Source of the DNA: Macrostomum lignano
Lineage: Eukaryota
Length of the DNA stretch: 64,000 bases
NCBI GenBank assembly: GCA_002269645.1
Contig: NIVC01000200.1
Location: 62,001-126,000 of the forward strand
Reading direction: 5' to 3'
The position numbers were made by a program, and so were the translations under genes. Numbering within the stretch: position 1 is the first letter of the stretch; each line of letters begins with the position of its first letter. Under the pieces are notes generated by a model. That model made no database searches. It saw nothing but the letters and a program-made list of their open reading frames with translations, and was not told the origin of the DNA. Shown here in pieces: positions 1,811 to 24,990 of this stretch.

Positions 1811-2594
1811 CTGCAATTCTCAAAATAATGTGCATGTAGGAATTTGTCACATACATGTAGAATTCATCCCCACAATACTTGTAAAACCCATGGCGACGCC
1901 CCTGAAGTCTTGTGCTTTTTTATGTGGTCCCGTTTTCAGTAAGAATGATTGGGCATTGCACTTTACTTGATTGCTTTTTATGTACTCAACTTTTCGAGGC
2001 AGAAAACCAGCGTTTACTACTACAAGTAGCTTTTTCGCCCTTGAATCAGTTTAAGTACTGAATGGCCATATAGGAATAAGTCAATCGATCAATAATCTAT
2101 ATAATTTTGAATCAGAATTCAAGTCAGTCATGTACTTTAGTGCTGACTCAGGCGGCATCGGGGTTGATTTTTTATGCACTAAAATTGCCACGGGGTCAGA
2201 GCTTGCGATTCCCGCCCGTTCGTGTCAATCAACTCCCAAGGCGTAGATCGTGTGCACTGCCTCCGATAGGCCAAGGCTGCTGTACATCGCTGTGTGTGTG
2301 CTTGAGGTTCAATCCATTCAGATGGGTTTGGCCTTCTTAAGCCCTTGATCGGAGGCAATTGTCGGGTCTCAAAGCTTAAAAAGTCAACCACTGATTGCTT
2401 CTGGCCTCCCTCATAGATGTGGCGAGCAGCTGGCTTCATCAATAAAAGAAGACAGCGAGTGACAAGCTGGGAAAATTGAAAGGTAGAAATCAGCTAATTT
2501 GGAGATTAAGCTTGATAAGTACCCTGCAGCAGGCGGAGGGGACCACCCATTCCACTGGTCCCTGGCTCAGCGTCTTCACTGCCGGAGCGACAGT

Positions 2595-3030
2595 ACTACG
2601 TAATGTGCAGAAACTGCAGGGTTTTTAGGCAGATTTGACGCAAAAAACGCAAATTATACTACTATCTGAAAATGAAGTAAGTAGTATACAAAAACGCTAT
2701 CCTAAGCGTGATATGGCAATATGTAGTCGTAATAATCCATGTGCTCATTTTAATTCCATGTACATTAATCCCTATCTATCTCAAATTGGATATGTACATT
2801 AATTCCATGTACATTAATCCCTATCTATCTCAAATTGGATATGTACATTAATTCCATGTACATTAATCCATATCTCAAATGTCCATGTCTATCCCCAATT
2901 CTATATGTACACTCACATTAATCTACAGTGTCATCCCCAGACGGTCTGAGCGCGCACCAAAATTACATGTACAATACTACATGTACGCAGAGGCGAGAAT
3001 TACTAATCTCATCTACTACCAAATGAGTCA
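2595..3030 (+). repeat. Left terminal inverted repeat with an internal ~45-50-bp tandem subrepeat (aattccatgtacattaatccctatctatctcaaattgg...)
   Basis: Near-identical to the reverse complement of ~20400-20714 over the outer ~300 bp; more diverged similarity (gcagagg.gagaatt, aatctcatctac, taccaaatgagt) continues to ~3030. Confidence 0.9.
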
Positions 3031-3393
3031 ACTAACAGTGTAGCGTACATCATGTATAAGTATTTACAATGAAGATATATTTACATTTAATCAGTAGCAT
3101 ATTACAGGAATCGAGACATGTACACCATCACCAGCAAATAGAATATACAGAAAATTTTACATTGTTTTTCATTAATTTTCTTTTCATAAATGATTTTAAA
3201 CAAGTTTGACACGCAAAATATGTACAATAGATTTTTACATTGGCAATTTCGCTGCATACAATACAAAAATGCTTTATGTACATTTGTATAGTAGTATGTA
3301 ACTCTTCATTAATTTAACATGCAAAATATGTACAACAATAAATAGATTTTACTCAGTCAAATTTAACAAGATATTTATTAAGCAAGGGCCACA

Positions 3394-6300
3394 TTATTTA
3401 TAACCATAAGGCCTGCTGCAGGCCCCGTACACGCGCTTCGTCAGGACGCGCTGAAACGTCTTGTCCATACTAACAGTGTGTATGGTACAAGACGCCTTGT
3501 CGCGCCTAAACTGAAGCTGCGGCAGCTGCAGGGAGCCGCCGTGTAGTAGGGCACTGCGCAATTCATCGCTGCGCTCCCGAATCTCCGGAGTCAGGCGGAT
3601 GCCCTTGCACTTCAGGACCTGACTCCGGGCACCGGCCGCATCCTCGACAATGTAAGTGTAGAGCTTGGGCCCCCCACTTACAAAGTCGGTCATCCGGCTG
3701 CCTGCGGGCACCTCATCGGTCCACATTCCGAGGCTCGTGCCATGGGGCGGCTCCCATTGGCCCTCGGAATGCCGGTAAACGACCCTGTGTGGGGGAGAGA
3801 AAACGAGATAATTGCCAACTTGCTAATTTACATGTAATCAATTCTAAAAGAATTTTCCCAATGCAATACTTACGAGTCAGTGTCGCAGTAAATGGCCCGT
3901 TCGCCGAGCCCCTCCAATGCCTCATACAGGCGCAGCCGGGCCTGCGTGGTCGTAAAGACCCCGATTGGTACGTTGGAGTACCGGAACGGCCGCTGATTAA
4001 AATAGCGGTGCCGGTACTCTAGCAGCATAAACTCGCTGCCAATCGGTTCGCAGGCCTTGACTTTGAGGTTGGGGTCGGTCAGCCGGGCGAGCCAGTCCTC
4101 GTAGCTGGATACTATTTCGGTCGATGTCAGGTCGTCACGCTGACAAAATTTGCCCCAGAGCCTGTGTGTTGCGAAAAGCTACTGTTAGTAGAAGAAGAAA
4201 TCGTTTAAAAAACAGAATTTATAATTACTTACGAATTCAAAAAGATTTTCGCTACAAAGCGAAGTCCTGGGTTGGGCTCGACCTTGTCCAGCGTGACGCC
4301 CTCCTTTGCAAAGAAATCGGCAATGTAGGCGGCCTTGTCCTCATCCGACATGCCAGGGGAGCCGCTCGACTCAGCCTTCAGCTTGAGGAAGGTGCTGACA
4401 TAGTCACTGAACAGACCGGTCCGCTTCTCTGTCCAGTAGGCTAGTGCGTGCACCACCTGCAGCCCAACTGGAAGCCCAACTGGAAGGCCTTTCGCAGCTC
4501 CGGCGTTGCCCAGGTGCCAGTTAGCGCCCGCTCCTCGTCTGAGTGGTCACAATCGTCGCCGCACTGCTGCTGCTCCATACAGGTGCGGCAAAGCCCAAAA
4601 AAGAGCTTCTTTTGCACCCTGTACGGCAGCAGCGGAATGTGCAAATTTGACGGCGGCAACACAGTCACTTTGGCAATACCAAAGTAACTAGCCAGCGCGT
4701 CAGAATCTAGCACTTGCGGCGTCGGATGTTGCACCGGGTGGCCAATCGGGTACGGGTCTTTCGACTGCACCGTCGGGTACAGAGAGACCTGCAAGTTGAA
4801 ATAAAACATTATTTTCATAAACTGTATTTTTGCAAAATATTCTACTATATTAGTAGTATCACTACTAATTGCACTTTGCAAACAGCGTTAAAGTGCTCGC
4901 CAATTAGGTGCAGATTCAGCACTTCGCGGCCGGGTAGGGCGTACACGCACGTATTGCCCTCCTCGGCACTGTACACGCGGGCGCCGAAATCTCGGCCGGG
5001 TGACTGGGCGTTCAGGACCGCGAGCAGTTGGGGGAGCACATCAACCCCGAAAGGCCCGACCTGTGCAATGGTTGATAAAGACTAAAACATTTGTATATTA
5101 ATAAAAATGCAAATTAAAATGTGCAAGATTATTTTTACTCACCGAATACGGATCGGCAGCAATCTGAAGCTCCCCAGTCAGCTTCGTCTGCAGTGGGGAG
5201 TCGGCCTTGATTGTTTGCCACGTAGTTCTCGTGATGACTTTGGCCTGCAGGTCGGCAAAGGCCTTGGACACCACCAGCGCCCGGATAAGGCACCGCTTGT
5301 CGCTGTTGGCGATGACCACGTAGTTATAGCCAATTGAATGGCGTGCCTGAATGTGCCGCTCCGCCGCATCTAGGCTGCCGCAGCCGCCCCGCGGGACCCA
5401 GGCCTTGAGCAAAAACAATTTAAAGTTGTTGCCCAAGACACTGGAGTCCGACTGCAGAACCTTGCTGATATGTTTAAATACCAGCTCTGCAGTGAAGCGG
5501 CTGCGGCGGACTGGCGGGACATTAACCGTGAGCAGCATGTTGTCGGCCGTTAGTTTGGCCGAGATGAAATCGTCAGCTTGCAAATCTGAGCAGAGCACAG
5601 AAATAATGCCCTCAAACGTGGAACGAATATCGGTAGTATCTGCTGCTGCGGTGAATGTCACTACATATTCGTAGCCTTTTGCCTTAAATTTTGGCAGGGC
5701 TTTCGCCCCGCCAAGACGCGCAATGAAGCCTGAAAAATGGAGGGTTTTGAAATTAGAATTGCGAGAGGCAGCGGCAGGTTTATGACTCATGAAATCAACT
5801 CCTTACCATCACCTTCGACAGTGTCGGGCTGGGGCGGGGGTTGAAATTGAGCCAAATCTGCAATAAAAATGCGCATGGTGACTAAAATTCTGACCGCTTG
5901 GAATTTTACAACTGTCAAAAATTTTTGATTGATTGCCTGCAGCAGCAGCAATTTTATCGCCCCACCCCAAGCAACAAAAATCGGCGAGTTGTAAAAACCC
6001 CAACTCGACACGTTCCGACACGTAGCAACAAAAGAAATGTGGGGTTGATTGACCCCCGCTTCGAATTTTAGGCTGTCAAAAATGTTTGATTGATGACCCT
6101 GATAACACTGATCCTGCTGCAGCAGACATTGTAAAATTTAAGAAAACCCCCTATCAGCACGTGTCTCCATTGTGCCTCCTTGACACCTAGCAACAATACC
6201 GCGCGGTCGCTTTTGGATTTTAAAGCTGTCTGATTAATAACCCTCACTGTAGCAGACAAGTTTTATTGCTGCCAAAACCCCTACTGTCAATTGCAGCGGT

Positions 6301-7240
6301 GATTACATCATCATGCCCGAAATCAGGGGTTGATTTGATCACTGCGCCGCTAGAATACCTGCCGCCGTGGTGATTACATCATCATGCCCGAAATCGGGGT
6401 TGATTTTATCACTGCGCCGCTAGAATACCAACCTGCCCGCCCCCCGCTGAGTCACGCGCGCGCCGCAGGATTGCTGTTTTTGCTTCTCTAGTCACATAAC
6501 CCCTGAAATTTTATGACTATCCTCTACAGGCATTATCCGGCTATACTGCTGCTGCTGCGGATATTCTCTAAAACTCTGTTATTTCAACAGGCCTGAATTT
6601 GAGAAATCCAACTTCAACGTCTATGTCAAGAGGAAATTCAGAAATTTTAAGCCAAAATGAATGCTAAAGATGAAAAGCAGCTGTGGTTCAAAGAAAGTCC
6701 ATATTTCAATAAGCGTGATTTAGAGTTTGCAAATCCCACAAATAAAAATGAATGTTGGACAAAAAGCTGTTTCCTCCGTTTACTTCAGTCTGCGACAGAC
6801 AGTCCGAATGCAGAAATTGTAAGATAATTGAGGTTAAAGAATAAAAAGCAGATTTTAAGAGAGTCCTATTATTTCAATAAGCTGAATTTACAGTTTGCAA
6901 AGCAACTCTGAATGCAAAGGGTGAAAAGCAGTTTTACAGTGGGCCTATTATTTCAATAAGCCTGATTTTGAGTTTGCGAAAGCCAAATGAATTCCAAAGA
7001 TGAAAAATCAGTTTTACAGAGAACAGCCCTATATTTTTCAATAATCCCGAATTTAGAGTTTCGTAAAAGACAAAGACGAAAAAGAAATTTTTACACAGAA
7101 TTGCAAGACTCACCTAGTTGTCTCCGCTTTGCAGCCGGAGGCTGATGCTGCTGCTGTGGTTGCTGCTGCTGCCTGGAGGGGCCGGCCTGCCCCCACAATG
7201 CCGATATTGCCGCTTCCGCAGCAGAGCGCTTCGATGCCAT
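3394..7240 (-). pseudogene. polB: Protein-primed family B DNA polymerase (Polinton type), intron-containing, internally deleted and frameshifted
   Basis: Exons 7240-7114, 5857-5807, 5729-5143, 5060-~4875, 4788-4233, 4161-3874, 3784-3394. Motifs: VSLYP (motif A, Asp missing), CRTC..C.H...ERALTGTW, K..LNS|LWGKF (B), YCDTDS (C), FVSGGPKLY, KCKGI, RPYGY. Exonuclease region absent. Frameshifts near 4470 (11-nt duplication) and ~3910 (1 nt). Confidence 0.9.
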
Positions 7241-7381
7241 TTCGATGGGGAAGGTAGATGGTTGTTGATGCTGCTGATGCTGTTGTTGTTGTTGTTGTTG
7301 TTGTTGTTGCTGATGCTGCTGTTGTGGTTTCTGCTGCTGCTGGCTGCTTCTGCGGATGCGGCTGCAGCAGCTCTCACCCGC

Positions 7382-7389
7382 TTTATATA
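7382..7389 (-). promoter_or_regulatory. Candidate TATA box of the pPolB gene
   Basis: TATATAAA on the minus strand ~140 nt upstream of the inferred ATG (7240), followed by a CAG/CAA-rich leader. Confidence 0.45.
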
Positions 7390-10105
7390 CCCGCAAGAGG
7401 GAGGGTGGGGTAGGGGCACGAGAATTGTGCGTGATTTTCTTTCCCGGGTCTATATTCTCCAGATTAGTGTACGATTGAACACTCCATTCCGCATTTGGTA
7501 TAGAAAAGTTGGGGTCAAAATTACCCCGCCAATTCTTTTCTCATGCGGTATTTTATTGGATCTGAGCGGAGCCATCCAACCGGCACTCTCGCAGGAGTGA
7601 AATGGCGACTTCGTCAGAGTACAGTCTCTCAAAGAAGAAGACCGCTTCCTCTTGCAACATATCTTTTCGACTTGAATCGGATAGAAAACGGTGTTTATCC
7701 AGAAAACAATTGGCAGAAGCTGACCAATAATAGCTAAATACAGATGAAAAATATGAAAGATAACTTCTGTGGTTTTTAAGGCCCGCCTGTCTCTGCGAGA
7801 AAATGGATGTCAAAAATCGCTGTATCAATTTAATGACCTGGGGGAAATGGGGCTTGTGTGCAAAGCATCCGATTGACAGAGGCTTGGGGAAGAGTTAATG
7901 GTCGATGAAAAGCTCTTGCCATCATCTAAAATATCCATCAAAGAGTAATAGGTGACAGCCCCTGTCTCGAGCCAAAAAATCAGAGAGACAGAGTTTTCTA
8001 CTTCTGTTTACGTAATGTTTAGGGATGGACCTGGGGTTATAGTGACAGAGAGTCAGTTATGGCATTTACGCGGTAGTAAAGAATTGCATTGGTGAGGCTG
8101 GGGTAGGTGTTGTTCTCTCCATATTGGCGAACATTAATAGTCCTGGGTTGAATTTTGATATGGCTAGAATGTATAGCGGAGAATCGTTGAATTGAAGGGT
8201 GATTCAACATGCAAAGTATGCAACAAAACCGATTCAGTGCATCTAAAAGAGGCTGTTGTGAGCTTCAGAACTGAGAATAACGTTTAAAATAGCATCAATG
8301 ACATGATTTAGTAATCGAAATCAATTGAATGCTGAAAACTTTAAGTTTAATAGCAGACTGTGTTTTTAGCCCCAATTTTACAGTGTCTATACAATATTTC
8401 CCCAGCTTCTTGGGCAATATACATGCCTATTTGAATGACAAAACAGCATTTTTGATGGTTTATTAGCTAAAATTACGATTTCTATTGATAAAATGGCAGA
8501 TTTCGATCCATAAAGTAAGCATTTTAACGTTAAAAATCGAAAAATGAGGAAAACTCGTGTTTTTCATGAAAAAATTTGCATTACTAGTAATTTAGCCTCC
8601 ATTAACTATTTCTTGGGCTGGGCTGGCTGTGGACTTCCATGTGGGATTTATTCCTGCTTCGAAGCCGTCTCAAGTAAAGTTGAAACGGCATTTGGGTAAA
8701 TTAACTGTTGAAGTTTCCAGTGATGAAATTACTGATTTTTATCCACAAAGTCTAACTTTTAACGTTAAAATTAAAAAACTGTAGAAAACTCGCCTTATAT
8801 GAAATGTGCTTTTTACGAGCTAGTAATTTAGCTTTTAATAAACTTGGACGGACCCGGTGTAAAAAGTAGGGTCAAGCGGACGTCTTTCGGACCCCGACGG
8901 GTCCTCATTGGGGTTGCGTCTGCTTTGTGAAAAAAATGTCTAGTTTTTACATTAAATCACTCTAAAGGGCCATATTTCAGTTACTTCATGGCTAAAAAGT
9001 TTGTCGACTTTGTACTTATGTGGGTCCGTTATTCGTCCCCAATGGTCCGTTTAGATCCGATCGACTCCTAAAAAATGCAAGTTTTTTCTAACGCCGTATA
9101 AATGTCCCTTTTGCTGTGATTTCGATTTGTTTTGGGTTTATTTTCAAGTATTCACCTTTGTGTACTGACAACTAGCACTTTTTGACAGTCCGATTTAAAA
9201 AGATACGTCAGATGAAAAATGACCCTTGGTCATTCTCCAGTTGCATAATTTACTACTTGTGATAGTAGAAAAGTTGGCGAAGTTTCTTTTCAAACTTTTC
9301 AAACTTTTCAAACTTTAGTCTTTTGTGTTTTGGGGCTTCTAGATTGCAGTCGCTTGACATTAGCCTTTCAGTTGAAAACAAATTAATCTTTTCGTGTGAA
9401 TGTTATATTTTCGTTTTTCATAGACTAATTTTTAAGCTATCTTTTAAAGCTACATTTTGGTTGGGGTGTCGCGTAAAATACGTATCAACAGTAAGTCTGA
9501 TCATGCCTTACTACTTTCGACAGTAGGGTTCACCAGAAAGGACTATACCCTGAGTGATAACTGCTTTTTATTAAAAATACCAAATTACCTGGTTATTAAT
9601 TGCGTACAATCACTTTGATTATGTAAATATTTTGCAGTGCCAGAGCTTTTGAATTTGGAAAAGAAGTTGGTCAAATTTTCAGTGCGCACCTTACCCGTGT
9701 GAATAAGAGTTTAGCAACGTTGGGCGTGGGTGGGTTAAAACTCAAGAATTTCGGGAAAACAGAAAGTGAATGAGCTCAATGTAGCACTGAGCCGCCGAAG
9801 GGCTGGCGCCAGATTTTGGTGGACCAGGGCCCCGAAGCCCTAACTAAGATCAGTAGCGCAACGAGAAATTTTTAGGGGGGGGATTCTGGAGGGTAAAGCC
9901 CGGGAGGAAGCGGAGGGGTGTCAGGGTTGCTTTCACAAGGTCGAAATTTCATATCCTCGAAAATACATATCTCACATAGCACCCTATCCTTTCTTATCTC
10001 CCATTATCTTCTTATTTTTACCATCTCTTATCTCCTCGCTTCTCTCGTTTCTCTCCTCTCCATTTTCTCTACTCTCAGCTCCTTTCCTAGAGAAATTTCA
10101 TATAT

Positions 10106-11015
10106 TGTTTGGGAGCCTGCTGTTTGGGAGGGGACCGCTTGCTGTTTGGGAGGGGACCGCTTGCTGTTTGGGAGGGGACCGCTTGCTGTTTGGGAGGGGA
10201 CCGCTTGCTGTTTGGGAGGGGACCGCTTGCTGTTTGGGAGGGGACCGCTTGCTGTTTGGGAGGGGACCGCTTGCTGTTTGGGAGGGGACCGCTTGCTGTT
10301 TGGGAGGGGACCGCTTGCTGTTTGGGAGGGGACCGCTTGCTGTTTGGGAGGGGACCGCTTGCTGTTTGGGAGGGGACCGCTTGCTGTTTGGGAGGGGACC
10401 GCTTGCTGTTTGGGAGGGGACCGCTTGCTGTTTGGGAGGGGACCGCTTGCTGTTTGGGAGCTTGCTGTTTGGGAGGGGACCGCTTGCTGTTTGGGAGCCT
10501 GCTGTTTGGGACCCTGCTGTTTGGGAGGGGACCGCTTGCTGTTTGGGAGCCTGCTGTTTGGGACCCTGCTGTTTGGGAGGGGACCGCTTGCTGTTTGGGA
10601 GCTTGCTGTTTGGGAGGGGACCGCTTGCTGTTTGGGAGCTTGCTGTTTGGGAGGGGACCGCTTGCTGTTTGGGAGCCTGCTGTTTGGGACCCTGCTGTTT
10701 GGGAGGGGACCGCTTGCTGTTTGGGAGCCTGCTGTTTGGGACCCTGCTGTTTGGGAGGGGACCGCTTGCTGTTTGGGAGCCTGCTGTTTGGGACCCTGCT
10801 GTTTGGGAGGGGACCGCTTGCTGTTTGGGAGCTTGCTGTTTGGGAGGGGACCGCTTGCTGTTTGGGAGCCTGCTGTTTTGGAGGGGACCGCTTGCTGTTT
10901 GGGAGCCTGCTGTTTGGGACCCTGCTGTTTGGGAGGGGACCGCTTGCTGTTTGGGAGCTTGCTGTTTGGGAGGGGACCGCTTGCTGTTTGGGAGGGGACC
11001 GCCTGCTGTTTGGGA
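10106..11015. repeat. G-rich minisatellite, 22-bp unit gggaggggaccgcttgctgttt with shorter variant units
   Basis: Directly visible tandem array; the overlapping long ORFs are repeat translations. Confidence 0.95.
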
Positions 11016-11401
11016 GATATAGTACACAATAGGGTAGATATACCAGTACACAATATAGTACACTTTTCTAGCTCTTCCTCTCCTTTCTATATAAACTCTT
11101 GAATTAAAAATTTCGCGCCTGCTATTTTATCTTTTGTAACAAAAAAACTTTCAAATTTTCAAACCAAAAGAGCTTTGTTTAAAAAGGGGCCTAGGGCGTC
11201 CAATTCCATACAACCAACCGATATTCTTATCTAAAATACCACCATAGTTAATATAGAAAAATTTATGATCCTACTCCGACACAGTGGGCTGGTTGATTTG
11301 TTTCTTCCTCGCTGAACCAGAGACTTCTAAATATAACGGCTGTTATTATTATAACTGTTATCTTCAGAGCTTTCTGTTCTGAACCACTTGACCTGCATAA
11401 C

Positions 11402-11406
11402 AGAGA

Positions 11407-11438
<32 letters not shown>

Positions 11439-11442
11439 AGAA
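11402..11442. repeat. (AG)n microsatellite at the 5' break of the RT fragment
   Basis: Directly visible. Confidence 0.9.
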
Positions 11443-11449
11443 ACTGAAG

Positions 11450-14035
<2,586 letters not shown>

Positions 14036-14061
14036 AGGCACAAGGACATATTGGTACCCAC

Positions 14062-15316
14062 CTGCATAGGCGGTAATCCCCCGGTGTACGCTCCTCTCCA
14101 ACAGTTGTTGGATACACTGTGCGTCTCTCGGCAGTCCTTGCGACTACTTTGCAATACGGACAACCGTGGTGGCCATTATGTCCAACAGTAGCCGTTATAA
14201 ATGATCTGAATTTCAGATGTAAAAATAAATGTGCTTTCATGCTCTGTAATTATATCTAATTAGATTAGAACCTGAAGATAGATACAGGAGATTCGCGTTC
14301 TAAAATGATTTAATTACACTTGTAATATACAAACCTAGCGGGGGCATCACAGATGAACCGGGCATTGGCGATACGAACTGGGATTCGGTTGACCAGCACG
14401 AAATCCGCCATGAAAGTCGCCATCTCATCGCAGAATTGCGCCAGATATTCTTGCAGAGGTGGTTTGCCGATCCCCGCATAAACTGAATGTTAATAAAAAA
14501 GATAGGGTATGTTGTACACATGTATTAGTTTATGAGAAGAGATACTAAATTAGACAGTGGCTTTAAATGTATAAAGCAAAATTAAATTTTACCTGCCACC
14601 GGAAGAGGACGGCTGGAACCGTTGAACAACGCCAAAATCGGCCAAGCGGAGAAATTTGAGGAGTTGTACAGTGGCATTCCGTCTATGCCGATTTTCACGT
14701 CAATTTCATAGCCCTGTGTGCCGTCGGCTAAGATGGTCGGGCTCGGCAGAGTGATCTCTTGCTTTTGTAGCAGGAAGTTGAGATTGGAGGAAATCCCGAG
14801 GTAGGCAAAATGGCCATTGCCCATTTCGTGCTTCGAGAAGCCTCCTTTTTTAGCACATCCGGACATGTGCGTGAGCAGGTGCACAGTCTTTGCGACTGGC
14901 AGGCCGCGGCTGCGAAGCGCATTTAGAAGAAATTCCATTCCTCTAATTGGCACTTTATACTTCAAAAAGAAGACCAACAGCTCTTCGTTCAAGCTCTCCA
15001 GGCTTGGCTGCTGTGGCGTGTCGTCATCGGGCTCGGGCTCTTCTACAATGACATCGTTGTCTTCTTCGCTATCGATGTCAGCGCAGAGATAGTCGAAGAG
15101 ACGATTTTGACGCACAGGATCGTTATTTTGAGTACTGAACTCCATTTCTGACTTTTCTTCGGAACAATTAGAGTTTTGAGAGTCAGGGACTTCCGTGGAC
15201 TTCTCAGCCGAGTTTTCCATTTTTTTGCCATCGTGACCGAAAAAAGTGGATGACAGCCAGTCGCGAGTTCTACGCGACCTGTTTGAGTCACCTTGACTCC
15301 CCCTTCGTTTATACAT
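14062..15316 (-). mobile_element. CMC (CACTA/EnSpm-like) transposase, 5' part only, three exons
   Basis: Exons 15316-14593, 14482-14335, 14205-14062 splice in frame. Motifs G.FAYLGI, IGIDGMPLYNSS..SAWPIL, FICDAPAR|SF, GHNGHHGCPYC. Cut off by (TATC)n about 27 nt into the next intron. Confidence 0.85.
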
Positions 15317-15770
15317 TAGAGGAGCAAATACAAAGCAATGTTAAATCAAGTAATATAGTTATAGCCTTTATCGGAGTTGAGATTATCGAGTGGGATACAC
15401 TGGGATTGTTAATAATAGAATAGCGTAAAAATAGCAATGAAAAAATCATCAGACTGGCGATGAGTCGGAGTGTGAGGTGAGACACGAAGCGCGCGGGGAG
15501 CGGGGTGGTTGAATTTTTCTGCCATCTTATTGGTCTTGAGACTCCGCCCCACACTGGGTGCGCTTGTGAGAGAATGGAAAGGGAGAGGGGGGGAAGGGGA
15601 GTCAAGGGTTGGGCCTATCCCAGGCCGGGAAAATCTTTTTCCCTAGATATATTCAGCTCGCGTATTAAATACTGAAGTATATTTCAGCATATTATAATTC
15701 AGACACTCAGCTCGAATATTTTTACTGCAACTGCATACACTGTTGATTAGCTCAAAAGTAAGCAGTTGAA

Positions 15771-17651
15771 ATGGCAGCAGAAGACATCCGGTTCATCGTT
15801 TTCTTTGAGTCTGACAGACAAGTATTAGAAATCGACACCCATAGCATTACTCTTGGAGAGTTCCAGGACTTTAGCATCAAAGACTGGGAATCCTTGAATG
15901 CCACCGATCCGTATTCGACCACCCGCATAGAAGTTCGGGCCGAATATGAAGGCCATTGGTATGACGCCGTGGTCATTCAAGTGGTCCTCAATCCGGAAAC
16001 GGATACGGACCCGGTGATATTTAAAATCCGGCAGCTTGTCGAGAAAAAGAAAAAGTCAACGGAGGGACTCATGCAAGCAGTGCAGCGCGTGCACACCGGA
16101 AAGCAGCGAATCCGCATGCAAGCCCTTCAGGTAAGAACTTAGATGCTCTTAATCCTCATGAACTGAACGTGCTCTGCAACCCAAAGATAAGTTATTCTGC
16201 TTTTAATGAAAACAAAATGCATTCTTTTTACCAGAATATAAGGACATCGGACAGTGAAGCATCCGACTGCCCAACTTCACGCATGCCAGCGAGAACGCCA
16301 GCAGTGGTCGAAAGCAGACCTACTCGACCAGACCTGCCCCCGCCTCCAGCATCTTCCGTCGTGCTGACACCACGGTCGCGGTCCACAGGCCCAGATGCGA
16401 CGCTGGTGTCGGATTTAGCGTCAGAGCCAGAGGCAACGGCATCGCCTTCTGCTGCAGCCGTCGCAGTAAGATCTACACCGGCCGGGCCATCAACGGTATC
16501 AAAGCAGAAGCCCTCCTCTGCCATCCCGTCTGACAATGCCGAGGTGCGGGAAGAAGGCATCGGCAGGCTGCACAGCGCGACTGCTCGCCGATTCCAAGAC
16601 CAGCTGCGTGCAGATGGCTTCGACCCGAATTCCACGGAAGGTGTGGCATACCTTTCGATGCTAACTGCTCGACGCCTAGCAGAGATGGAGAGGCGCCAGC
16701 ACCAATTTGAGCGCCAAGTTATTGACCTCCTCGAAGGCATTTCCGCTCATTTGGCATCTCAAACTCGACGCGGCCGCCAAGAAGAAACCGCCGTTGAGTT
16801 CACGCAAATTGACTCGTGGCCGGACTACCTCAGCTTTATAACGTCGATTGAAGCTCAACAGCGCCTCGTAAGTTTTCATATTTGCTAGATTAATCACAAA
16901 CAGATCTAATCCAAATTAAAAGCAATGAACTTATACTCATAGAAGAAATAATATACTTGTGCTTTCAACCTACTTGCAGTAGTATTGTAGTAATATAATT
17001 TTATACTTCTTTTGCTTTAAAAATAATAATTTCTACTTCATTCCACTTCAGGGACCCAGTCTACGTGGCTGCCGATGCGCGACCCTACATGAAACGGTCC
17101 GACGGATGCTGGAAAAGTGCATGTCGGCTTCAATGCTAAGTGTAGTCAACTACAGTGGCCGTGGCATGGCGGAAAGGCTGAACCGGGCTGTTCCTGGGCA
17201 TGGCGCGACCGAGGCCGAACTGGGCTTCCGCAATGCCATGAATACCATTCAGGGTGAGTGCTCTTTGTATTCAGTATTCGTTTTTGATGGAACTTAGAAA
17301 GAATTAGAAATGAAAGAATACGTAAAATACGCATTTAGAGAGATTTAGAGTTATATAGCGACAGGTACAGGGAGGCAGATAAACATGTTCCAGGTCCTCT
17401 CTAACCCTGTGTGCAACCCACCCAAACCTACATTTACAGAGGCAATCAGGTTCATATATCCTGAGGACAGAGGACGACCCTCTGAGCGCGATGTAGAAGT
17501 CGCCGTTATTCAGGTGCTGAAACACGCTGCCGAGAGGGAGGCCGCGCGCCAACGTAGAAAATCCCTACGTGAAGAGCACCACGAAATGCCAGGAGACACC
17601 AGCGAGGCGCAGCAAGGGATGAGAAAGCGGGCCAGAATTGACTCTGATTGA
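15771..17651 (+). CDS. DUF4806-like transposon accessory protein (~468 aa, four exons), head-to-head with the CMC transposase
   Basis: Exons 15771-16130, 16235-16867, 17052-17253, 17440-17651 join in frame. S/P-rich linker, coiled coil, C-terminal ETVRRML...VNYSGRG...EVAVIQVLKHAAER pattern resembling DUF4806 partners of animal EnSpm-like elements (family assignment from memory). Confidence 0.7.
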
Positions 17652-17744
17652 GATGCCGAGGAGTAACTGTTTATTTCTTTTGCACCCCAAAAACATTAAT
17701 TTTCTGGATACGCACCAGAATATCCTATGTATTAAAATTCAGAT

Positions 17745-18650
17745 AGAGATAATTAGGATTCAGGTAAGAGATAATTAGGATTTAGGTAAGAGATAATTAG
17801 GATTTAGGTAATAGATTAGGATTCAGATAAGAGATTAGAATTCAGGTAAGAAATTAGGATTCAGGTAAGAGATAATTAGGATTCAGGTTAGAGATTAGGA
17901 TTCAGGTAAGAGGTTATAATTCAGGTAAGAAATTAGGATTCAGGTAAGAGGTTATAATTCAGGTAAGAAATTAGGATTCAGGTAAGAGATAATTAGGATT
18001 CAGGTAAGAGATAATTAGGATTCAGGTAAGAGATAATTAGGATTCAGGCAAGTGATTAGAATTCAGGTAAGAAATTAGGATTCAGGTAAGAGATAATTAG
18101 GATTCAGGTAAGAGATTAGAATTCAGGTAAGAGATTAGGATTCAGGTAAGAGATTAGAATTCAGGTAAGAGATTAGGATTCAGGTAAGAGATTAGAATTC
18201 AGGTAAGAGATTAGGATTCAGGTAAGAGATTAGAATTCAGGTAAGAGATTAGGATTCAGGTAAGAGATTAGAATTCAGGTAAGAGATTAGGATTCAGGTA
18301 AGAGATTAGAATTCAGGTAAGAGATTAGGATTCGGGTAAGAGATTAGAATTCAGGTAAGAGATTAGGATTCAGGTAAGAGATAATTAGGATTCAGGTAAG
18401 AGATAATTAGGATTCAGGTGAGAGATTAGAATTCAGGTAAGAGATTAGGATTCAGGTAAGAGATTAGAATTCAGGTAAGAGATTAGGATTCAGGTAAGAG
18501 ATTAGAATTCAGGTAAGAGATTAGGATTCAGGTAAGAGATTAGAATTCAGGTAAGAGATTAGGATTCAGGTAAGAGATAATTGGGGTTCAGATAAGAGAT
18601 AATTAGAATTTAGATAAGAGGTTATTAGGATTTAGGTATTATATCAATAG
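17745..18650. repeat. Tandem array, 19-22-bp unit attag(g/a)attcaggtaagag
   Basis: Directly visible, downstream of the DUF4806-like stop codon. Confidence 0.95.
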
Positions 18651-20261
18651 AATTCGGGTATTTGATAATTAGGACTATTTCGGCCACTGCTGCCAAACCT
18701 GCTGCTCAACGACCCTGCCCCGTTCTGCTAATGTTGCGCTAAGTGATGTTATATATTTCATACTTTCTATTTTACCCGTAAACTATATGTAACTACGTAA
18801 ACAGGAAATAAATGATAACTAAAATGCATTTTTCATTTCGCTCTTCAAAGTCTTCGTATACGTGATATAACTTTAACAAACTGAAACACTGCACGCAATG
18901 CAACCTACTGAAAGTAGTGTGTAAATACTGGGGTCGAATAAAAGATTGCAAGTAGGAGTCATGAGGACCCCTACTGAACAGGGTCCGGTCTGCGTCTGAA
19001 TCAGTCCTACATCAGCGTCTGGCGGACTCGATTTCAGTAGGACATAAGCACCCTACCCAGACGGCCCAAAACTGACGCCCGATGGACGGCTTATTTTTAC
19101 ACCGGGGAATTCCAACTTGGAGAGGTCAGTGGGTGATTCATTCCTGCTTCGAGAGATCGAACTTTCATAGAGTCTGAAAGCTTGAAGTGAGAGGGCAGGG
19201 GAAGCGATAGAATTGACATAGCCGCACGTTTTTGGGCGGGTGGACTTCACTACTTCTAGTATACCGCATTGGTCATAGTGCCAAAGTATTTCTGTGACAA
19301 AACACATCTATAGAATTCAGTCTCGGAATTGTATGCAGAGGAGACACTGATTCATAGGCTGTGTACATTGACAGATGTGGCTGGGGTTTGTCAATGCAGG
19401 TGGAGGTTGACTCGGATTTGCCCAGATTCGTGGGGTTGATATGTGCATTAAAAGTTGGTTTCTTGCTAACTGGGGGTGGCATGGATGACGTAATTGGATA
19501 AGAGGGGTTTTGCTGAATGAGGTTTAATTTAAGGTCCGTGCTGTGAAAAGATCTGTTTGAACACTGAAATGGAGAGAGGGGTTGGAATTCCTTGGCATTT
19601 ATTAGAAGGGGGACAGAGAGAACAGGGACGAGTGGTTCTATTCGATTTGCTATAGGGGTCTGCTGACCATTAGAGGGGTGGCTGTTTTCAAACAGTCTTG
19701 GGGTTGAATTTTGAATATGGCCGGAGATAAAGGGTGATTCAACATGCAACATAATTAATTCCATAGTGTACACCAGCGTCAGTGGCACATTTTGCGGATT
19801 ACAGCGCGACAAGGGGTCTTGTATCATCTGCACTATCAATACAATAGATATATAAAACATTGCTTTCACAGTCTTGATTTAGAGGCCGACTAAATAAATA
19901 TATACTTATCAAAGCTCGGCCGGCTTTTTGTGTAAATATATATACGTCTTTTGACAACTTATTTGACTCGGGTAGAGGCATTGGGAATGACGTAATTGTC
20001 TCGGAGTGGTGACGAGGGCTGAATTCTAGAGGTATGAAGTATAAAAGGAGTGGAAATAACAGTGTGGACCGCGATTTTTGGCTGACTCATGCCTCCTCTG
20101 CCAATTTTGGGGGATGGGCGGCGGTTTCTGCGTACACTGTTTGCTTTCTGTGGATCAGCAGATCATGAAGAGTTAATTCTTGGATGTGCGGCCGCTTTGC
20201 AAATTTTGGGTATAATATCAATATGGGTGGGTGGGCGCTTCTGCATGCTGTTTCAACTATT

Positions 20262-20714
20262 GAAAACTCATTTGGTAATGGTAGATGAGATTGTACAGCG
20301 CGCGCGTACACCAATTCTCACCTCTGCGCACAACTGTACACACGTAGTAGGGTTTCGAGTTGTAATTTTGGTGCGCGCGTGGGCCGTCTGGGGATGACAC
20401 TGTAGATTAATGCACATGTACATATAGAATTGGGGATAGACAATTTGGGATAGGGATTAATGTACATGGAATTAATGTACAATTTGAGATAGATAGGGAT
20501 TAATGTACATGGAATTAATGTACAATTTGAGATATTTAGGGATTAATGTACATGGAATTAATATGAGCACATGGATTATTACAACTACATATTGAATCAC
20601 GCTTAGGATAGCGTTTTTGTATACTACTTACTTCATTTTTCAGATAGTAGTATAATTTGCGTTTTTTGCGTCAAATCTGCCTAAAAACCCTGCAGTTTCT
20701 GCACATTACGTAGT
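20262..20714 (-). repeat. Right terminal inverted repeat
   Basis: Reverse complement of the left TIR with several indels and a differently sized subrepeat. Confidence 0.9.
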
Positions 20715-21203
20715 GACAGTAGGGCCCCGCTCGTCTCAGGACCTGCGTGGCCCTGAAGAAAGAGAAGCAGCCATCCCCTGAGGGCCATGTTGATTGCTCT
20801 CTGCGGTTGAGTCTACAGGTACTGTAAAGAGTGCTCTGCGCGGAGGGGGCACGGACAGGGGACGGCAGCACAAGACATAATGTGGACTTTAACGCCTCAC
20901 CTGTTCCTCTTTCATCTGAAATTGTTTTAGGAAATTCTTATAGTAGAAATTTCGAGGGAAATTTCTTCCAAACTATGAAGTCTTCGTTAAAGTGGTTCCT
21001 GACGCTGGCATGTAGCTCGTAGCTAATTAATTCTTCACGTGAGCAACTATACAAGCCAAGTATTGACGGGAACACTTGCTACTTACTATAAGTAGACAGA
21101 TACATGTAGGAAAAGATAGATGCAATCCACAACAGGCCGTTGAATGGATTGAAATTCGCTGTAAGTTGGTCAATACGAACAGCCCAGGCCTTGATCGGCT
21201 TAT

Positions 21204-23112: not shown

Positions 23113-23300
23113 GGGGCGCCAAACACCAGGGGTGCCAAGCACCAGGGGCGCCAAGCACCAGGGGCGCCAAGCACCAGGGGCGCCAAGCACCAGGGGCGCC
23201 AAGCACCAGGGGCGCCAAGCACCAGGGGTGCCAAGCACCAGGGGCGCCAAGCACCAGGGGCGCCAAGCACCAGGGGCGCCAAGCACCAGGGGCGCCAAGC
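23113..23300. repeat. 16-bp minisatellite caccaggggcgccaag
   Basis: Directly visible. Confidence 0.95.
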
Positions 23301-23403
23301 CAATTATCTTTTAGAAAAGCTACTGTTCAGAGTCGCATGTGTATCTTTGAAAATCATCCAAATAAATGTACAGGCTGAATACAGTTCTGTCTCTCTCAGC
23401 TCA

Positions 23404-24990
23404 ATGTCGGGAACCAACAATGATCACCACGGCGATGGCGGCGGCGGCGGTGGCGGCGGCGGCGGCGGCGGCGGGCCTCGTTGCGGAGGCCAGGGCCCGG
23501 TGCGCTTAAATTCAGTAGCTCGAGAGGCCATCACCAGTCAGCTGACCGAGGAGCAAGTTGCCGAGTTCAAGGAGGCCTTCGCCCTATTCGACAGAGACGG
23601 CAGCGGGTCCATCACCGTCAGAGAGCTGGAGGTCATCATGCGCTCGCTTGGTCAGAATCCGAGCGAACAGGAGCTCGCTGTGAGTAGCCAGTGACTCATC
23701 TGCTTATCTGGTGTGCTGGTTGCGAATCATTGGAATTTGCCGAGTCACAAGGACATACCTGACGATTAAAAAGTCTGGGCCTCTTGTATACCCTGTGTGA
23801 ATTAGTGGCCAGGTTCCAAATCACCCCAATAAAAATTTCGCTCCTCCAAAAACTATGTGAAACAATTGCAAGCTCAGGGAATGAAAATAGCTTGACTTTG
23901 CCACTTCATGGACGTGGCATCCGCCGGCTTGAAGACAGTGGTAGGGGCGCCCACCAAAAGACACGGGCGCCAACCAAGAGACAGGGACGCCGTCAGGGAC
24001 AACCAAGAGACAGGGGCGCCAACCAAGTGACAGGGGCGCCCACCAAAAGACACGGGCGCCAACCAAAGAGACAGGGGCGCCAACCAAGACACAGGGGCGC
24101 CAACCAAGAGACAGGGGCGCCAACCAAGAGACAAGGGCGCCAACCAAGAGACGGGTCGCCAACCAAGAGACAGGGGCGCCAACCAAGAGACAGGGGCGCC
24201 AACCAAGAGACAGGGGCGCCAACCAAGAGACAGGGGCGCCCACCAAGAGACAGGGATGCCCACTAAGAGACAGGGGCGCCCACCAAGAGACAGGGATGCC
24301 CACTAAAAGACAGGGGCGCCAACCAAGAGACAGGGGCGCCAACCAAGTGACCAAGAGACCAAATATATGCGTCCTTTAGGGGTGCGGCCGTTCAATTAAA
24401 ATGTATGCGAACGCCACTGATGTGAGGCTGTGAGCGTGTGGCGTGCCTGCGTACAGTATTGTCGCGCTCGTACTGTCACGTACAGTATCGCGCGAGAACG
24501 CCCATCAGGATTCAGCGGAATGGACAAAACTCCCTCAGGGTTTGATGTGGGACGATTTCAGGATGCCAGGGTGCCCCACAGCCTTTCTGCGAATAGTTAA
24601 ACTTATCTCGTGTACTGATAATGTGTACGCACACTTCTACGTGCTTATTTTAACATCCAAGACGATATAAAATGCCAACAGGAGATGATTCAAAGCGTAG
24701 ACATCGACGGGAACGGTGAGATTGACTTCCCCGAGTTCATGGCCATGATGGCCGAGAAGCTGCAGGACACCAACTCGGAGCAGGAGATCATCGCAGCATT
24801 TCAAGCCTTCGATCGAGACGGTAACGGCTATTTGAGCCGCGAAGAACTGCAGGGCATCCTGATGCACTTCGGCGAGAACAGCATGACGGAGGAGGACATC
24901 ACGGAGATGATCTCGGCGGCCGATCGCAACGCCGATGGCAAGATCCAGTACGAAGAGTTCGCTCACTTCATTGCCTCCGTTATTCGTTGA
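23404..24990 (+). CDS. Calmodulin-like EF-hand protein (194 aa, two exons) with a poly-Gly N-terminal extension
   Basis: Exons 23404-23679 and 24682-24990. [18 protein letters not shown]; four EF loops [48 protein letters not shown]. Too divergent to be canonical calmodulin. Confidence 0.9.
23943..24352. repeat. 20-bp minisatellite ccaagagacaggggcgccaa in the calmodulin-like intron
   Basis: Directly visible. Confidence 0.95.

Follow-up and report, generated by a model that had tools for sequence, protein, structure and literature searches.

The window examined here comprises 64,000 nucleotides of the Macrostomum lignano genome (GenBank assembly GCA_002269645.1, contig NIVC01000200.1, positions 62,001 to 126,000, forward strand), and the subject of this analysis is the Polinton-like element located at 2595-20714 of the window. 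The element is flanked by exact 6-bp duplications of the target site (TSDs), GACAGT, at 2589-2594 on the left and 20715-20720 on the right, in agreement with an earlier reading made without database searches (the sequence-only reading). Its terminal inverted repeats (TIRs), which lie at 2595-2967 (plus strand) and 20361-20714 (minus strand) and start with 5'-ACTACGT, were also recognized in that reading, but the length given there, about 430 bp, was too long: they measure 373 bp with 90% identity. The pPolB gene reported inside the element was recovered on the minus strand at 3394-5802, with introns, and is supported by PF03175 (E 6e-5 for one open reading frame (ORF) of the window; in a sister copy the long exon gives E 9e-27). 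It is broken in the window: relative to sister copies it has a frameshift near 4465 and has lost ~1.76 kb internally at 4866|4871. The pPolB protein (P0001) contains exonuclease and polymerase motifs, and we take it to consist of an N-terminal TP-like/vOTU-like region, a VSR-like insert, and the polymerase. The structure model is of low confidence (mean pLDDT 51.9), and its residues ~84-196 form a sheet-plus-two-helix domain (blocks 50-82) that resembles the fused terminal protein/vOTU as described in the available text of PMC11161782; at this confidence the likeness is suggestive. An integrase, a capsid gene, an ATPase, and a protease were all reported missing from the element, and a tblastn search of the window element likewise detected none of them.

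In addition, the element contains a nested CMC (CACTA/EnSpm-type) transposon of an independent family, which occupies 8853-19106, is 10.25 kb long, and has CCCGG ends (CCCGGTGTAAAA...TTTTACACCGGG) and a GA duplication, at 8851-8852 on the left and 19107-19108 on the right. CMC (CACTA/EnSpm, Mirage, Chapaev) elements have short TIRs, a 2-bp TSD, and a transposase plus a second gene. The nested element has short TIRs starting with CCCGG, a 2-bp TSD, a putative transposase, and a second gene, and nothing notable separates it from this family, although the copy in the window is truncated. The 5' exons of its transposase are located at 14037-15340 (minus strand), and the second gene, which is divergent and has several exons, at 15762-17651 (plus strand). 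The 3' part of the transposase, known from copy C230, is replaced in the window by a reverse transcriptase fragment of a non-LTR (long terminal repeat) retrotransposon at 11453-12840 (plus strand; RVT_1, E 9e-18), which the sequence-only reading overlooked, as it did the terminal sequences and 2-bp TSD of the CMC element; an (ATAG)n microsatellite at 12840-14034 is found at the same place in other CMC copies too. The pPolB and the CMC transposase of the window are both broken. The two genes had been described as a CMC transposase/DUF4806 pair. Two divergent genes are indeed present, but the Pfam support for the transposase is weak, with DUF4218 below the cut-off (E 5e-4) on the C-terminal part in copy C230 and no match of Transposase_21 on single exons, and DUF4806 obtained no score on any single exon of the divergent gene.

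The sequence-only reading had also proposed that the element might be a hybrid self-synthesising element in which a CMC transposase replaces the integrase, and it speaks for this that one pair of TIRs encloses the two genes in the window. According to that reading, the idea would fail if the CMC pair occurred elsewhere with its own TIRs and a 2-3-bp TSD, and this proved to be the case. The left end of the CMC element had 29 matches in the genome and the right end 6; both ends were seen in 7 of 17 fetched loci, each with a 2-bp TSD, at five sites outside the host family. Furthermore, the sister copies C1159, C1300, and C2757 have a single GA at the CMC insertion point. The hybrid is ruled out because, in the window and at the five other sites, where free-standing copies occur, the transposon is delimited by ends and a 2-bp TSD of its own, and because the three sister sites are empty; the truncation of the transposase in the window also argues against it, and the proposal retains practically no probability. 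The CMC pair is a separate transposon inserted into the Polinton segment, a passenger unrelated to its host.

Copies of the host element without insertions form a family, here called segment 1, of 9.0-10.4 kb with 5'-ACTAC TIRs and 6-bp TSDs, in which gene conservation is limited to an intron-containing pPolB, sometimes accompanied by PC4 and dUTPase. The pPolB query had at least 136 matches that fall into two groups, A (at least about 93% identical) and B (about 65% identical), and pPolB is the only thing that the A copy C1159 has in common with B copies. A divergent PC4 gene is carried by B copies and by some A copies, the latter having dUTPase as well. The ratio of nonsynonymous to synonymous substitution (dN/dS) of pPolB was 0.08-0.13 among seven A copies. 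Three GT..AG joints of pPolB were detected in sequencing runs that were guessed to be RNA, none being recorded as such, with C1945 as the reference: one joint in three runs, one in two, and one in a single run, two of the three being seen in two studies; a fourth run, of unrecorded kind, contained none. No rve integrase accompanied pPolB in any of the 17 pPolB-bearing copies bounded by TIRs and a TSD, and the major capsid protein (MCP), minor capsid protein (mCP), ATPase, and protease were absent from segment 1 and all located on a second family. Because integrase and capsid genes are missing from uninterrupted members too (the 12 copies that retain at least 89% of pPolB), pPolB is under purifying selection, and its splice joints were seen, the absence of these genes is the normal state of a selected and expressed family and not a sign of decay. 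The simpler of the two earlier interpretations, a decayed Polinton with a nested CMC insertion, therefore holds for the insertion but not for the decay.

The second family, segment 2, is 9.8-10.7 kb long, has 5'-ACTAC termini and 6-bp TSDs, lacks pPolB, and encodes an rve integrase, a double-jelly-roll (DJR) MCP, a minor-capsid-like protein, a protease, and an ATPase. It came to light only in an exact search with the B terminus, which returned 13 matches in 6 pairs; two of these pairs delimit new elements that lack pPolB. Among these is C4, which has the B-type end and a 6-bp TSD and encodes an integrase, a capsid protein, and an ATPase. The MCP of C4 had at least 98 matches, mostly in a 98-100% group and an 85-89% group. 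All five fetched loci of the 85-89% group carry the A-type end, four of them with both ends and a TSD, and the B-type end was found in three (C4, C181, C355) of the five B-group loci examined; among the four further loci of the 99% group, C181 is complete and C355 is cut by the contig start. The integrase matched rve with E 2e-9, and the MCP model (pLDDT 87.5) is a double jelly roll that matches the PBCV-1 capsid with E 1e-18; a sequence search of the PDB with the MCP profile returned nothing. The assignments of the ATPase, protease, and mCP come from motifs and weak phmmer matches (E 1e-4 to 7e-3) to the complete Polintons of the genome. For the MCP, dN/dS was 0.10-0.22 among A copies and 0.04 when A was compared with B.

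Other ORFs of segment 2 code for a TBP-like protein, for two proteins of no assigned function, and, in B, for a Fic domain. In the lineage-B copy the Fic domain (E 8e-14) is at L087:938-1741 and the TBP-like gene at L087:3281-3814; the TBP-like protein is present in segment 2 of both lineages, with E 1e-4 for the B copy. Nothing usable emerged from Atlas searches with ORF3 of segment 2 or with the N-terminus of pPolB, and a viral_contigs search found no relative of the MCP. Public contigs do contain MCP relatives at 78-80%. Twelve metagenome MCP loci of 1-10 kb contained no pPolB, and a TIR was absent from the six longest; because these loci are incomplete, they are uninformative about segmentation elsewhere.

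The two families were compared in an inventory of 28 copies of either kind bounded by TIRs and a TSD. At least 89% of pPolB was present in 12 of them, part of pPolB in 5, the set of integrase, MCP, protease, and ATPase in 6, and neither in 5, while pPolB and the integrase/MCP set occurred together in none of the 28. Of the 62 MCP loci, 3 are on a contig that also bears one of the 102 pPolB loci, the distances being 48, 165, and 468 kb, and among these listed matches no MCP locus lies within 48 kb of a pPolB locus; for this count adjacent fragments were merged, and a 35% pPolB match on C234 and twelve MCP matches of 30-33% were left out. The palindromic copies C1580, C1190, and C362, in which the inverted repeat continues into the host flanks, may be assembly fold-backs and were excluded from all counts.

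The ends of the two segments are also similar. The first 23 nt are identical between a B segment 1 (C1412) and a B segment 2 (C4), and the first ~31 nt share a pattern across segments, the left TIR of the window beginning with the kind common to segment-2 elements. The A segments have a common subterminal block of 130-180 bp (87%); the corresponding block of the window, ~170 bp at 19890-20065 (plus strand) with a TATA-like motif, is 83-87% identical to that of lineage-A segment-2 elements. The termini vary between 5'-ACTACG and 5'-ACTACT. Exact 6-bp TSDs were found for 29 copies at 26 sites, and in 26 of the 29 copies the first 30 nt of the left and right ends are identical, although positions 9-28 differ among copies; these end variants recur in both segments. 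Synonymous divergence (dS) between A and B was 1.8-2.2 for pPolB and 1.6-1.8 for the MCP, so that the split into lineages A and B is of similar depth in the two segments. Purifying selection acts on both halves. Our results thus describe complementary gene sets on separate molecules with matching ends, equal TSD length, and similar sizes (9.0-10.4 and 9.8-10.7 kb), with selection acting on both and splicing of pPolB. The window element is a polymerase-only Polinton segment, broken and interrupted by an unrelated CMC insert, and we consider it likely that this kind of segment and the ~10-kb integrase/capsid segment together constitute one bipartite Polinton.

By analogy with the biology of Polintons and adenoviruses, the two halves would cooperate and form virions. 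A segment would leave the chromosome as linear DNA, and the pPolB of segment 1 would start synthesis from the terminal-protein domain fused to it, at the ACTAC(T/G) ends, and copy either segment. A terminal protein fused to pPolB has been described (PMC11161782), as has protein-primed copying from repeated end motifs with jumping-back (PMC8097293). Panhandle pairing might keep both TIRs of one molecule identical and let end variants pass between segments. The integrase of segment 2 would insert either segment, generating the 6-bp TSD, and its capsid proteins, ATPase, and protease would package molecules of ~10 kb, one per particle, which would explain the matched segment sizes. Gene-less or long-TIR copies of 4-9.5 kb may be defective passengers of the same machinery, and their structure would fit panhandle or copy-back replication. 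Splitting would cost little because both halves reside at many sites and every cell holds the partner. Whether the system amounts to a multipartite double-stranded DNA (dsDNA) virus of the PRD1-adenovirus lineage is an evenly balanced question; such a virus would have two ~10-kb segments that are packed in their own DJR particles and integrate separately, a provirus life would have made the split affordable, and the arrangement would have lasted through the deep A/B divergence while ends were swapped.

Several observations weigh against the bipartite Polinton, and two other explanations draw on them. The segments might be two loosely linked parasites without obligate dependence, segment 1 being an integrating, linear-plasmid-like replicon and segment 2 a polymerase-less virus, with the missing functions borrowed from active Polintons, including the AGTAG-ended ones. 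The genome abounds in complete Polintons that encode a polymerase, an integrase, and a capsid themselves, and at least 148 other Polinton integrase loci could act in trans. The sharing of ends is also not strictly within lineages: beyond nt 31 it crosses them, and the pairing of A with A and of B with B is not strict because the subterminal sequence of segment 2A resembles that of segment 1B. In addition, two B segment-2 loci, C150 and C633, lack clean ends, and the A-B dS values are near saturation, with a lower range of 0.8-1.4 for the integrase. Partial AGTAG-ended elements (C10, C356, C393) indicate that lopsided derivatives arise in this genome anyway, and free linear DNA, virions, and trans-action enter the bipartite explanation as postulated steps. 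However, the complete families end in 5'-AG and not 5'-AC and have no DNA in common with segment 1. Moreover, the two segments have terminal sequence in common, and their A and B lineages diverged to a similar depth. We therefore regard two loosely linked parasites as rather unlikely.

Both families might otherwise be ordinary non-autonomous deletion derivatives of a complete ACTAC-ended Polinton that was missed or is unassembled. Only part of the candidates was scored (131 of 157 for pPolB, 95 of 450 for the MCP, and 40 of 219 for the TIR), so all lists are lower bounds and a rare complete copy could escape. Moreover, the segment-2 copy C3385, whose left end is not in hand, holds a ~370-nt 3' fragment of pPolB, that is, segment-1 sequence within segment 2. 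Nevertheless, linkage to pPolB was found in none of the 28 bounded copies and none of the 62 MCP loci, and deletion derivatives would not retain a dN/dS near 0.1 across the A-B split, which makes this origin more doubtful still than that of two loose parasites. The bipartite Polinton remains the explanation that we prefer.

The termini of the genome's complete Polintons read 5'-AGTAG, and these elements do not match segment 1 at the DNA level. A genome search with a DJR family profile gave 73 matches; the Polintons reached in this way encode a polymerase themselves and have AGTAG-type ends, and the partner of segment 1 was not among them. A second large integrase family, which likewise combines AGTAG ends with capsid genes, was rejected as the partner. 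Searching the genome with the Pox_A32 family gave 0 matches although such an ATPase is present, and this search was too insensitive to be used. A palindrome of 100-300 bp was seen at the terminus of complete AGTAG-ended Polintons (L059-L060, L081-L086). Three partial elements have AGTAG-type TIRs. C10 (G000:C10:1494075-1501932, L098-L099) is 7.9 kb long and encodes PC4, integrase, mCP, and MCP, with no polymerase among its long ORFs; it may be another split system or have arisen by deletion. C356 (G000:C356:361552-362885, L096-L097) is a 1.3-kb PC4-only mini-Polinton of a type that seems to be multi-copy, and C393 (G000:C393:168304-172392, L079-L080) is a 4.1-kb mini-Polinton with an integrase and without a capsid gene.

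Variation was also observed among ACTAC-ended copies. L001-L003, L006, L009, L010, L014, L020, and L089 have ACTAC ends, true 6-bp TSDs, and TIRs of 0.8-3 kb or more with up to 99.9% identity, and the TIRs of some derivative copies are 2.2-2.8 kb long. The long-TIR copies, some of which are palindromic over almost their whole length, resemble defective genomes of the copy-back type. Genes for P/THAP-type transposases occur within several copies of both segments (L010, L017, L018, L088), and non-LTR elements within others, which suggests that both segments are insertion hot spots. Just beyond the window element, an exon at 23113-23694, presumably calmodulin-like, adjoins tandem arrays of 16-bp and 20-bp units.

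As a pair, the two segments possess the full Polinton gene set, and neither half alone would be counted as a Polinton. Similar to Polintons/Mavericks (adintoviruses; pPolB of the Alpha type, PF03175, PMC8502044), they together have pPolB, an rve integrase, DJR MCP, minor capsid protein, protease, ATPase, long TIRs, and a 6-bp TSD. Their sizes sum to about 19-20 kb, inside the 13-25 kb range given in 10.1101/2023.08.22.554363, and both segments have TIRs and TSDs as in Polintons (100-1500 bp; 6 bp). In contrast to Polintons, the genes are distributed over two separately integrated elements, and the termini are 5'-ACTAC instead of the (AGT)2, (AG)3, or (AC)3A motifs noted in PMC8097293. The same source describes intact vertebrate Mavericks as intronless, whereas the pPolB of segment 1 has spliceosomal introns. 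Capsid-less Polintons are known (PMC4028283); no integrase-less Polinton with a complementary partner was found in the literature searched. Likewise, literature searches, with Repbase and supplements outside their scope, returned no bipartite Polinton and no Polinton study of Macrostomum lignano, and the available text of PMC4028283, PMC12859917, 10.1101/2025.04.19.649669, and 10.1101/2023.08.22.554363 mentions no bipartite Polinton.

In its organisation the pair comes closest to bidnaviruses. Bidnaviridae (Bombyx mori bidensovirus) and the Drosophila Vesanto virus resemble the present pair in having a Polinton-derived pPolB, segments of similar size, and matching termini, and bidnavirus segments are packed in separate capsids (PMC4061559, PMC8502044, PMC8363768). 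These viruses differ in having single-stranded DNA and parvovirus-type capsids, and an integrase is not named in the available text of these three sources, whereas Macrostomum lignano retains the integrase along with the full Polinton DJR morphogenesis module, and each of the two segments is integrated. That replication and morphogenesis modules are separable is also indicated by transpovirons, Tlr1, eukaryotic linear plasmids, and the proposed "autonomously mobile replication modules" (10.64898/2026.10.13.758929; see also PMC11161782). However, in the available text of 10.64898/2026.10.13.758929 the DDE integrases are stably tied to pPolB and module autonomy is speculative, while here the integrase accompanies the capsid module and the replication module is without one.

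Multipartite genomes are found mostly in plant and fungal viruses, and for animals the available text of a 2016 review lists only bidensoviruses and one RNA virus, with polydnaviruses excluded, and names no multipartite dsDNA animal virus (PMC5094692). If true, a divided Polinton would extend multipartite genomes to DJR dsDNA viruses and would point to a route toward a multipartite genome in which integration guarantees the presence of the partner. It would be a physical example of the modularity of replication versus morphogenesis proposed for the group, and a possible model for the rise of segmented bidnaviruses from Polintons. Surveys that require pPolB beside an integrase (10.1101/2023.08.22.554363) would overlook such systems, so "defective" Polinton halves elsewhere merit a re-check. 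Macrostomum lignano is a laboratory model, and its many near-identical copies and spliced pPolB allow the old question whether Polintons form episomes and virions to be put to the test in natural material.

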